Source: Myxococcota bacterium
GTDB taxonomy: Bacteria; Myxococcota_A; UBA9160; UBA6930
Assembly: GCA_965223415.1 (NCBI GenBank)
Contig: OZ245002.1
Location: 3,616,001 to 3,680,000, forward strand
Direction: 5' to 3'
Length of the DNA: 64,000 nt
Both the position numbers and the translations under genes were made by a program. Shown piece after piece: positions 33,261 to 57,672 of this stretch. Numbering within the stretch: the first letter of the stretch is position 1; every line of letters begins with the position of its first letter. Under the pieces are notes generated by a model. That model was not told the DNA's origin. It saw only the letters and a list, made by a program, of their open reading frames with translations, and made no database searches.

Positions 33261-33264
<4 letters not shown>
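32299..33264 (-). CDS. Membrane-anchored RNase Z/MBL-fold protein with degenerate metal-binding motif
   Basis: N-terminal TM; VGTGG, LVDAGRG, GPPGT framework, but TSLLPEN replaces THxHxDH; ATGA overlap with purU. Confidence 0.8.
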
Positions 33265-34127
<863 letters not shown>

Positions 34128-34159
34128 GGGCGGCGATGCTAGCCACGCCCCGGGCCGTC

Positions 34160-34168
34160 TGATAGGGT
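34160..34168 (+). promoter_or_regulatory. Extended -10 promoter (TGnTAGGGT) facing the structured intergenic region
   Basis: TGA-TAGGGT at 34160-34168, divergent from purU. Confidence 0.4.
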
Positions 34169-34233
34169 GCCGGACAGGGGAAATCACTCATTCCCGAGTC
34201 TCGGCGGGCGGTTCGTCCGCGCCGGCGAGGCGA

Positions 34234-34441
34234 CCCGGGGCGGTGGGATCGGCGCCCTCAAGGCACCCGGGACCGAAGCGAGAACTGGGTCTCGTGGGGT
34301 ACGACCAACGCCGAGAAGGAGGTGCACAAACTTGGACCAATCTCAACCTACGGCGAGTGAGGTGGCGGCGTTCTAGCCACCCGAGCCGAAGATTGATTCT
34401 TCTCGGTCGTTGGGACGTCGTCCCAGGCCACCGCCCCCGGG
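34234..34441 (+). ncRNA. Candidate structured RNA containing a sequestered SD and a 14-codon ORF
   Basis: Nested complementary segments: CCCGGGGCGGTGG/CCACCGCCCCCGGG, ACGAC/GTCGT, CAACG/CGTTG, CCGAGAAGGA/TTCTTCTCGG, CAATCT/AGATTG, GGTGGC/GCCACC. Confidence 0.5.
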
Positions 34442-34753
34442 AGCGCGGACGCCGTAGCCGCATCCGGGTCCACGAGGACCTGCTCCCGGGGGTCGCTCAT
34501 TCCGCGACCGGCTGCGCGTCGGCGACCTGAGGGCGTCGGAGCTCCGGGACGGCTCGAAGCCCGCGCAGCGCCCCGCTTCCTGCCCGGACGGGGAAGGAGC
34601 TCGGAACCTCCGGGCTCCGGCGAGGAGAGGGCGCCGCGCGGGCGGAACCTCGAACCGCATCCAAGCTGGCATGCCCGCCCGACGCAGGCTGTGCGCGCGG
34701 TCACAGGGGTGCCATCATCCCACTCCATGCAATCACTTCCGGATCGACACAGG

Positions 34754-36142
34754 ATGCGCCGCCTGCTCGCAGGGGTCGTGCTGGGGGCGGCCCTGGCCGC
34801 GAGCGCCAGCGCGGTCTCGCCGGAGGAGCGCCTCGCGGCGGCGCTCCGCTTCCCGACGGTTTCCCACCAGGATCCGGGACGTTTCGACCCGGAGCCCTTC
34901 CAGGCGCTCCACGCCTTCCTGGAGGAGAGCTTTCCCCGCGTCCACTCCGCACTCCGGCGGGAGGTCGTGGCCGACTACAGCCTCCTCTACACCTGGCAGG
35001 GAAGCGACCCCTCGCTCCAGCCCCTGCTCCTCACCGCCCACCTCGACGTGGTTCCCGTGCCCGAGGGCACCGAGGACAGCTGGGAGCAGCCCCCTTGGAG
35101 CGGCGTCATCGTCGACGATCACGTCTGGGGCCGCGGTGCCCTCGATGACAAGGTCGGTGTGCTCGCCGCCCTCGAGGCGGTGGAGAACCTGCTCACCGGG
35201 GGCTTCGCGCCGCGACGCACGGTGCTGCTGGCCTTCGGCCACGACGAGGAGCTGGGCGGAGAGGCCGGGGCCGGTGCGATCACCGCGCTCCTCGAGGAGC
35301 GCGGCGTTCGCCTCTGGTTCAGCCTGGACGAGGGGATGGTCATCGCCCAGGACGGGGTGTTCGGCCTCGGGGCCCCCGTCGCGCTCATCGGGATCGCCGA
35401 GAAGGGGTACCTGTCCCTTCGCTTGACGGCGCGCGCGCCCGGCGGTCACTCGAGCATGCCGCCGAGAAGCGGTGCGATCGGCGCCCTCGCCCGGGCCGTC
35501 ACGGCCCTGGAGGAGAAACCGATGCCCGCGCGCACGGGCGGCGTCTTCGGCGAGACGATCCGCGCGATCGTTCCCCACCTCTCCCTCGGCCGTCGGCTCG
35601 TGCTCGGGACACCGCTCCTCTCGCGGCTGGCCCTGGCCGGCGTCGCCCGCGACCCGGCAGCCAACGCCTTCGTCCGCACGACCACCGCCGTGACCATGGC
35701 CGGCGCCGGCACGAAGGAGAACATCCTTCCGCGAGAGGCGTGGGCGCTGGCGAACTTCCGGATCGTGCCCGGCGACACGAGCGGCGAGGTGGTGGAACGG
35801 GTGCGGGCGATCGTCGGCCCGGAGATCGAGATCGAGGTCGTCCGGGCCCGGGAGCCTTCGACCACCTCCGATCCGGGGTCGGCGCCCTACCTCCTGCTCC
35901 GGGACACCCTCGCAGCCGTTGCTCCGGAGACGCGGGTGGTGCCGGGGCTCGTGGTCGGCGGCACGGACACCAAGCACTACGGTCGCATCGCCGACCAGAG
36001 CTTCCGCTTCACGCCGATCCGCATCCAGCTCTCGGACCGGACCCGCATCCACGGGGTGAGCGAACGCCTGGCGGTGGACTCCTACCTCGAGGCCATTCGC
36101 TGGTACGAGGCCCTTCTCGAGCGGGGGGCCGGCGGCGGCTGA
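34754..36142 (+). CDS. Secreted M20 metallopeptidase/amidohydrolase (carboxypeptidase S / PM20D1-like)
   Basis: Signal peptide; TAHLDVV, GRGALDDK, GHDEE, DEG, GGHSS, GGTD, IHG. Confidence 0.9.
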   Translation: MRRLLAGVVLGAALAASASAVSPEERLAAALRFPTVSHQDPGRFDPEPFQALHAFLEESFPRVHSALRREVVADYSLLYTWQGSDPSLQPLLLTAHLDVVPVPEGTEDSWEQPPWSGVIVDDHVWGRGALDDKVGVLAALEAVENLLTGGFAPRRTVLLAFGHDEELGGEAGAGAITALLEERGVRLWFSLDEGMVIAQDGVFGLGAPVALIGIAEKGYLSLRLTARAPGGHSSMPPRSGAIGALARAVTALEEKPMPARTGGVFGETIRAIVPHLSLGRRLVLGTPLLSRLALAGVARDPAANAFVRTTTAVTMAGAGTKENILPREAWALANFRIVPGDTSGEVVERVRAIVGPEIEIEVVRAREPSTTSDPGSAPYLLLRDTLAAVAPETRVVPGLVVGGTDTKHYGRIADQSFRFTPIRIQLSDRTRIHGVSERLAVDSYLEAIRWYEALLERGAGGG

Positions 36143-57596: not shown

Positions 57597-57672
57597 TGGC
57601 TCCCCGGGCAGGACTCGAACCTGCGACCCAGCGGTTAACAGCCGCTTGCTCTACCAACTGAGCTACCGGGGA
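57597..57672 (-). tRNA. tRNA-Asn (GTT)
   Basis: TCCCCGGTAGCTCAGTTGGTAGAGCAAGCGGCT-GTT-AACCGCTGGGTCGCAGGTTCGAGTCCTGCCCGGGGAGCCA; 76 nt with encoded CCA. Confidence 0.98.

Follow-up and report, generated by a model that had tools for sequence, protein, structure and literature searches.

A stand-alone, pseudoknotted RNA gene with a conserved mini-reading frame and Ms_IGR-5-like core beside purU in Myxococcota

The DNA analysed here is a 64,000-nucleotide (nt) stretch of the genome of a Myxococcota bacterium (assembly GCA_965223415.1, contig OZ245002.1, positions 3,616,001 to 3,680,000 of the forward strand), referred to below as the window and numbered from its first letter. A purU-like formyltetrahydrofolate deformylase gene (33261-34127, minus strand, start 34127; Pfam ACT and Formyl_trans_N) and an M20 peptidase gene (34754-36142, plus strand, most likely start ATG 34754; Pfam Peptidase_M20 and M20_dimer) enclose an intergenic gap whose length of 626 bp had been correctly given before. 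The gap holds the gene of a small RNA (sRNA; 34176-34497, plus strand), divergent from purU and with its terminator about 260 nt from the peptidase start. The original prediction, made from the letters of the locus, had described an unannotated, independently transcribed, structured sRNA with a ribosome-binding site and a mini-open reading frame (ORF). That description holds, and both translation elements are conserved. The RNA is a stand-alone, separately transcribed small-RNA gene and, as judged from sequence, a distant and longer relative of the actinobacterial Ms_IGR-5 RNA. No Rfam family matched within the gap at its gathering score; the sole match of the window at that score is a tRNA gene (57600-57672, minus strand). 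By eye, the RNA had not been matched to tRNA, transfer-messenger RNA (tmRNA), SRP RNA or 6S RNA. An Rfam scan gave no 6S match in the region, and ARAGORN found no tmRNA (RF00023) there; the genome's tmRNA lies elsewhere (135 bits). The core is less GC-rich than its surroundings, as had been noticed (55.8% in 34316-34410 versus 70.7% and 77.0% in the flanks).

Conservation among relatives begins with -35-like and -10 elements, continues with AGGGGA (34176) and stops after a GC-rich stem and T-run. The extended -10 element named in the original prediction, TGATAGGGT at 34160-34168 (plus strand), is present and has the consensus GATAnGnT (GATAnnnT) in relatives. A -35-like TAGCCA (34140-34145, plus strand), of which TAGCC is conserved in the relatives' alignment, lies 17 nt upstream of the -10 and is a putative promoter element. 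A scan with sigma-70 promoter and terminator consensus sequences returned nothing at its stringency. We infer a unit of about 320 nt with its promoter at 34140-34168 and its intrinsic terminator at 34435-34492; transcription would start near 34176, on the conserved A in AGGGGA, and the gene ends just 3' of the terminator. The T-run follows the GC-rich stem in most relatives and is weak in the present genome. TAGCCA is part of a palindrome, GCTAGC (window 34136-34145), which, read on the minus strand, gives a -10-like TAGCAT exactly 7 nt ahead of the purU start codon ATG, and TAGCC is kept in relatives with an adjoining purU. purU may be leaderless, and its promoter may overlap that of the RNA back to back.

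Evidence for expression comes from assembled contigs of relatives in four RNA libraries from three studies, placed on the locus at a likeness of at least 80%. Metatranscriptome contigs span 34184-34491, and the 5' domain is joined to the core by the contigs at 34185-34439, 34222-34431 and 34219-34424. Two of the four runs leave purU and the M20 peptidase uncovered, and the summed depth over the conserved core reaches hundreds to thousands in one run. The segment 34138-34171 and positions beyond 34511 are without contig cover, which is not evidence for transcript ends; one relative's contig extends 112 nt beyond the terminator stem. The RNA is probably abundant.

The stretch was detected by blastn in 38 of 41 relatives. 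Across a sample of the phylum, the RNA was present in 45 of 47 same-order genomes and in none of 10 sister-family genomes, with short weak matches only elsewhere. A nhmmer profile matched 137 of 257 loci, which yielded 100 distinct homolog sequences. A covariance model of the core only, built from 66 sequences and called R1 below, matched 22 of 23 same-order genomes (E values of 1e-23 to 1e-38) and found a single copy in the present genome. R1 also gave strong scores of 107.6 and 87 bits in two large genomes from another family; two of four sister-family genomes and two others had weak matches, at 28-30 bits. A loose three-box DNA pattern was discarded: it matched across many phyla, its actinobacterial matches lay within coding sequence and were due to chance, and only three loci fitted the nhmmer profile. 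A stricter pattern returned 82 records, almost all of them metagenome-assembled genomes (MAGs) labelled Myxococcota, Deltaproteobacteria or Myxococcales, with other labels in a minority. Several RNA-bearing MAGs (L179, L180, L183, L186, L190, L232 and others) are labelled Spirochaetales, Geobacter, Gemmatimonadota or Alphaproteobacteria; judging by the RNA and the purU next to it, these bins or labels seem to be erroneous. Among the 100 homologous loci, at least 62 have purU as the divergent gene upstream, a lower bound, as many loci carry only about 400 nt of upstream sequence. One relative (L013, 1707-2801) has purU downstream of the RNA and on the same strand instead.

The plus strand of the locus folds at -150.6 kcal/mol (z -3.29), a value equalled by none of 100 shuffles, so that the advantage over shuffled controls expected of the RNA was observed. 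Fold energy does not discriminate between the strands, the minus strand reaching z -3.94; the plus strand was chosen because of its many G-U pairs, the promoter, the ribosome-binding site with its ORF and the T-run. Structure was tested on an alignment of 101 homologs against 500 shuffles and slid controls. A multi-domain, pseudoknotted model of 67 pairs in 12 helices had 92.3% of its cells paired compared with 88.2% in shuffles, and 40 of its pairs carried changes on both sides compared with 22.9; neither value was reached in any of the 500 shuffles. Slid controls of the same model were 41-50% paired. The covariation among homologs therefore supports this revised, approximately 320 nt model and not the rod of about 210 nt proposed originally. 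The helix that was to close the rod (34234-46/34428-41) does occur in the sequence's own minimum-energy fold, but over the 101 homologs it is paired to 78.9%, equal to shuffles (145/500 as high), and its covariation is 0.048 compared with 0.046 in shuffles. Of its two arms, the 5' one folds into a hairpin of its own and the 3' one serves as the 5' arm of the terminator.

The 5' domain consists of four hairpins, all, like the features described below, on the plus strand. P1 (34177-34195; 34177-81 with 34191-95) is 97% paired with both-sided changes in three of its five pairs, and its CUCACUC-type loop (34183-89) is complementary to a GAGUGAG within the ORF (98% paired, two pairs with a both-sided change). 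P2 (34200-34230) varies in length and sequence; by RNAalifold on the relatives' alignment, each pair has both-sided changes in 3-11 of 30 sequences, the present genome's own sequence aligning poorly there. P3' (34242-34260; 34242-47 with 34255-60) is 78% paired and has both-sided changes in five of six pairs. Its invariant loop CGGCG (34250-54) has a possible partner in CGCCG at 34309-13, a combination that is 99.2% paired and in which one compensatory change of G-C to A-U occurs in two sequences. Positions 34450-54 are an alternative partner, and the single compensatory event favours 34309-13. Pairing at 34309-13 would overlap helix P5, so alternative states are possible. P4 (34278-34295; 34278-83 with 34290-95, GCGAGA/UCUCGU) is 90% paired and shows both-sided changes in six of six pairs.

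P5 joins 34310-34317, which abuts the Shine-Dalgarno (SD) sequence, to UUCUCGGU at 34400-34407. The two arms covary and are 91.4% paired; the pair 34317:34400 alone appears as A-U in 25 homologs, C-G in 25, U-G in 18 and U-A in 13. A local hairpin that would compete with P5 (34385-88 with 34404-07) is only 65-95% canonical and aligns poorly. This region was the site of the proposed pairing between the SD and TTCTTCTCGG (34397-34406). The pairing of the SD flank (34310-17 with 34400-07) is indeed conserved and covarying, but it stops at 34317 and leaves the GGAGG core unburied in the conserved fold. Downstream follow a small hairpin (34412-34424; GGGA at 34412-15 with UCCC at 34421-24, 97% paired) and an AG, and then a GCCACC box (34427-34432) that pairs with codons 11 and 12 of the ORF in 100% of cases. 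The RNA closes with a three-way junction (34435-34492) on the terminator stem (34435-44 with 34482-91), all 10 pairs of which show both-sided changes (97.9% paired); the pair 34441:34485 is G-C in 86 and A-U in 15 rows of the 101-row alignment (G-C 82, A-U 15 in an earlier one). Arm 1 of the junction (34445-48 with 34458-61) carries the loop ACGCCGUAG, and arm 2 (34466-71 with 34476-81) is a variable hairpin that covaries within the 101-homolog model.

The SD, start codon and short frame named in the original prediction, AAGGAGGT at 34316-34323 followed by TTG 34332 and the 14-codon ORF MDQSQPTASEVAAF with its TAG stop at 34374-34376, are all present. The SD in fact extends to AAGGAGGUG (34316-34324), which can form nine contiguous Watson-Crick pairs with the 16S rRNA tail of the genome, GGAUCACCUCCUUUCU; scored against this same tail, 69 of the 100 homologs have a run of at least nine. 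The mini-ORF (34332-34376) comprises TTG, 13 further codons and the stop. GGAGG followed at a distance of 5-9 nt by a start codon is found in 91 of the 100 distinct homologs (7 nt in 73). Among these 91 the start is GTG in 55, TTG in 34 and ATG in 2, the frame has 14 codons in 85 and 15 in 6, and the stop is TAG in 44, TGA in 37 and TAA in 10, with its position kept and never replaced by a sense codon. Eight further homologs, read by eye, have a GGGGG SD and an in-frame 14-codon frame. Insertions and deletions within the frame come in multiples of three only. Codons 2-5 are variable and A-rich (CAA 52 versus CAG 1; AAA 18 versus AAG 0), whereas codons 7-11 read ACG GCG AGU GAG GUG in 81-85 of 85 sequences, wobble positions and the rare AGU included. 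The genome, at 72% GC, disfavours both AGU and NCU. Since stop and frame are kept while codons 7-11 are fixed at their third positions, the frame is kept open as a frame and its 3' half is conserved as RNA. Covariation also links the first base of the start codon to 34317 and 34400; this may be a consequence of clade structure and not of pairing.

Within the ORF lies an invariant hub of 20 nt (34348-34367) with three long-range complementarities. The first, between CUACGGCG and the junction hairpin loop CGCCGUAG (34450-57), is 99.9% paired and invariant within the order. The second matches GAGUGAG with the P1 loop CUCACUC, and the sole lineage with an altered box at this contact (L011/L012) compensates at two positions and has gained one mismatch. 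The third joins GGUGGC to the GCCACC box (34427-32, 100% paired), and this ORF-box helix is compensated in other lineages as GGUGACG:CGUCACC, GGUGGUG:CACCACC and GGUGAUG:CAUCACC, and in Streptomyces as GGUGACUGC:GCAGUCACC. Because the ORF-box helix crosses P5, the core is a pseudoknot. A sister-family homolog has a different complementary pair, CGGUGAC:GUCACCG, at the relative place of the junction-loop contact, which is suggestive only. In the present genus a second GCCACC stands right after the stop codon (34376-34381); GGUGGC can pair with it locally, so that the stop lies in a loop of 9 nt, or else reach the distant box at 34427-34432. In other genera GGCG..CGCC flanks the stop codon in its place.

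In a relaxed Rfam scan of 801 nt, RF02471 (Ms_IGR-5) was the only family with E < 0.1 (27.7 bits, E 2.7e-4, 34308-34501). As its gathering score is 45 bits, the present RNA is not a member by the Rfam threshold. The original claim of full novelty thus stands to the extent that no family matches at its cut-off, and gives way to a distant kinship with a known one. The sister-family homolog likewise has RF02471 as its sole Rfam match (23.7 bits, E 0.0069). True Ms_IGR-5 RNAs, a single one in each of five actinobacterial genomes, score 54.6-169.5 bits. When the whole present genome was searched with RF02471, 150 of 641 candidates were scored, the present locus not among them, and the best score elsewhere was 18.4 bits. 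In the reciprocal direction, R1 landed on the annotated Ms_IGR-5 site in all five actinobacterial loci, with significance in two (E 5.5e-6 and 0.0019) and without it in three (E 1.4-4.1). Both RNAs are stand-alone units from promoter to terminator, with one copy per genome and, probably, a branched 3' terminator domain. Both have a long SD, a GTG, TTG or ATG start and a frame of 12-15 codons ending ..E-V-A/V-A/V-x-stop and coded GUGAGGUGRCnGC; a YCACC box, with UUCCCnGC ahead of it, is the pairing partner of the end-of-frame codons. The five actinobacterial members have 12-13 codons ending ..[C/R/S]-E-V-[A/V/T]-[A/V]-x-stop, a UUCCCnGC-RYCACC box and a terminator, and the combination of SD, 12-15-codon frame with GUGAGGUGRC and kept stop is found in all five. 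We uphold the link to Ms_IGR-5 because of the reciprocal model match together with this common architecture: on sequence grounds, the present RNA is a distant and longer relative that has the same core design, an extra 5' domain and a score below the Rfam cut-off.

The present RNA has about 140 nt of extra conserved 5' structure (P1-P4), whereas the five actinobacterial RNAs start about 10 nt before the SD. P5 pairs the 5' flank of the SD, whereas in the Rfam consensus of Ms_IGR-5 the 3' part of the SD pairs with the Ala codons. Ms_IGR-5 is known from Actinobacteria, a phylum other than that of the present RNA, and synteny with purU is absent from the five actinobacterial loci. A class IV aminotransferase gene (L258, 1756-2748, minus strand) adjoins the Mycobacterium deserti Ms_IGR-5, and a GCV_T folate-binding-domain protein gene (L262, 74-1051, minus strand) the Nonomuraea copy; MSMEG_5795 has reportedly been named in a paper on a folate/peptidoglycan enzyme. 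The other three loci are without a folate-related neighbour, and the recurrence may be chance.

Rfam lists Ms_IGR-5 solely as an actinobacterial sRNA of unknown function, and the literature that we found on it comprises catalogues, a remark in a ribosome-profiling (Ribo-seq) study and a preprint on capping with nicotinamide adenine dinucleotide (NAD). It is IGR-5 of Mycobacterium smegmatis, located between MSMEG_5794 and MSMEG_5795 (alias ncMSMEG15794c), and has been called 'validated but yet uncharacterized' (bioRxiv 10.1101/2021.12.14.472595; PMC10454040). The preprint describes IGR-5 as NAD-capped (bioRxiv 10.1101/2021.12.14.472595). MS_IGR-5 homologs in mycobacteria are reported to carry ribosome footprints (PMC4974804). 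In Streptomyces, an Ms_IGR-5 Rfam match is on record for S. lividans, and for S. avermitilis an sRNA transcription unit (PMC8079986; PMC8780764).

We favour, with slightly more confidence than doubt, the view that the RNA is a stand-alone molecule that engages ribosomes, that its fold is switched by translation and that the peptide is a by-product. Translation in the present organism and the translational remodelling of the fold are predictions of this view. The RNA would offer a long complement to the 16S rRNA tail, and a weak start codon (GTG or TTG) 5-9 nt after the SD would open the 14-codon frame, whose first five codons would serve as an A-rich variable spacer. The hub (34348-34367) would be invariant as the centre of the fold, touching the 5' hairpin loop, the 3'-junction loop and the GCCACC box. 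The hub starts at +17 from the start codon, about where, judging by ribosome toeprints in general, the footprint of an initiating ribosome would end. A ribosome could dock and initiate without touching the hub, and reaching the conserved stop would require all three hub contacts to be melted. The output of the remodelled RNA could be the parking or titration of ribosomes, or the exposure of conserved loops to a partner. Of the originally proposed gating of translation by folding, a link between fold and translation thus remains plausible in another form; the burial of the SD is not supported.

Several results weigh against this interpretation or against the kinship on which it draws. RF02471 gave nothing at E <=0.01 when the loci of 20 relatives were searched together and nothing at E <=1 for the two large-genome homologs, and R1 was not significant at the site in three of the five actinobacterial loci. 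Two of the four RNA-library runs cover purU too, and relatives' contigs cannot give strand, ends or expression level and may include DNA carry-over. The energy of the contact between ORF and 3' domain calculated with RNAduplex for the present sequence is no better than that of shuffles (45/200 as good). The three partners of the hub are nearly invariant, so that their support is mostly constant complementarity and not covariation, and within the order both-sided changes are absent from the junction-loop helix. The +1 frame is likewise open in 68 of the 100 homologs, so openness alone is weak evidence. Finally, homolog L173 has lost the usual stop and has a frame of 20 codons; its altered codons still match the compensated box (GGUGAUG:CAUCACC).

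An untranslated regulatory RNA, whose SD- and start-like elements bind the 30S subunit or an RNA-binding protein or are structural, and which acts as a sponge or by base pairing, would account for the invariance of the 3' half of the ORF at the nucleotide level, the lack of conservation in the N-terminal half of the peptide, the elaborate covarying fold and the weak start codons. We nevertheless regard it as unlikely. The stop position is fixed in 91 of 91 homologs while switching between TAG, TGA and TAA, the spacing between SD and start stays at 5-9 nt in all 91, and indels in the frame respect multiples of three; the ribosome footprints reported for the mycobacterial cousins (PMC4974804) point the same way. 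The frame and its kept stop, together with the C-terminal E-V-A/V-A/V-x-stop common to the actinobacterial Ms_IGR-5 frames, could also be taken to mean that the 14-residue peptide (..T-A-S-E-V-A-A-S/F) is the product of a small-protein gene and that RNA structure is secondary. Yet codons 7-11 show no synonymous variation, although AGU and NCU are disfavoured. In addition, where residues 11-13 differ, the box has changed to match (an A to T replacement, for instance, goes with C to U), and residues 2-6 are not conserved, all of which leaves this explanation improbable.

The position of the RNA ahead of a co-directional gene raises the question of attenuation, in which translation of the mini-ORF would set terminator formation and so control the M20 peptidase or, in many relatives, an AMP-binding enzyme. 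A co-directional AMP-binding enzyme gene lies downstream in 13 of 23 scanned loci and an M20 peptidase gene in 8 loci, the T-run of the present genome is weak, and the contig of one relative runs on beyond the stem by the 112 nt noted above. In 6 of the 23 loci, however, the downstream gene is convergent to an RNA that is fully conserved, and the T-run is strong in most relatives. As downstream genes vary and terminators are strong, a conserved cis-regulatory role is disfavoured, and the leader-peptide switch entertained in the original prediction is weakened by the same lack of a conserved downstream gene. Moreover, the ORF lacks a regulatory codon run, and the ORF-box helix uses no terminator nucleotides; the sole helix that overlaps the terminator is the unsupported 34234-46/34428-41. 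The S. avermitilis MS_IGR-5 is a stand-alone sRNA unit according to PMC8780764. We consider attenuation to be doubtful at best. An RNA that binds RNA polymerase in the manner of 6S or Ms1 RNA seems very improbable. It would fit an abundant, structured RNA of about 300 nt in a genome (97% complete, single contig) that has no RF00013 match at E <=0.01, and one adjoining a folate gene, as 6S adjoins ygfA in proteobacteria (PMC9130861). The region has no such Rfam match, though, the conserved fold is without a long rod and central bubble, and neither family has an SD or mini-ORF.

A relative of Ms_IGR-5 that has the mini-ORF, the pairing box and the terminator domain in common with it and is present in nearly all sampled genomes of a largely uncultured order suggests that the design is ancient or has been selected repeatedly, and that the RNA's partner is the ribosome rather than the peptide. 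The 20-nt hub contacting three domains provides a concrete anatomy with which to ask if abundant mini-mRNAs serve as ribosome sensors or sponges. PurU hydrolyses 10-formyl-tetrahydrofolate, the formyl donor for initiator tRNA. As a speculation to which we give only a small chance, the RNAs could form a cross-phylum 'translation-gated' class, with an extra-long SD, a weak non-AUG start and a hub in the mini-ORF, whose shape reports initiation and elongation capacity; in the present order, where its promoter would overlap that of purU, such an RNA could belong to a circuit coupling initiation capacity to one-carbon/folate metabolism. If this were true, the pairing of RNA and purU would be a ribosome-side counterpart to the linkage of 6S RNA and ygfA.

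Like 6S and Ms1 RNAs, the present RNA is conserved, structured and probably abundant, in the size range of 200-300 nt and near a folate gene, and it may act on a core machine by binding it instead of through antisense pairing (compare PMC9130861). The synteny described for Ms1 RNA (HAD-IB hydrolase, oxidoreductase; PMC9130861) was not found at the present locus. The presumed partner differs, being the ribosome and not RNA polymerase, and a promoter-mimic bubble is lacking. SgrS/SgrT, RNAIII/hld and SR1/SR1P are dual-function sRNAs with a translated small ORF; their peptide is conserved as protein and can be separated from the base-pairing region. In the present RNA, by contrast, the conserved part of the frame is conserved as RNA and lies at the centre of the fold. 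The trpL, hisL and pyrL attenuators place a short ORF before an intrinsic terminator, where the position of the ribosome may alter pairing; the present RNA differs from them in having no regulatory codon runs, no conserved regulated gene and an ORF partner that lies off the terminator arms. tmRNA is structured, pseudoknotted and abundant, with a tRNA-like domain and an internal mini-frame that has neither SD nor start codon. Both are thus pseudoknotted RNAs with an internal mini-frame, and the present RNA differs in having an SD and a start codon of its own.

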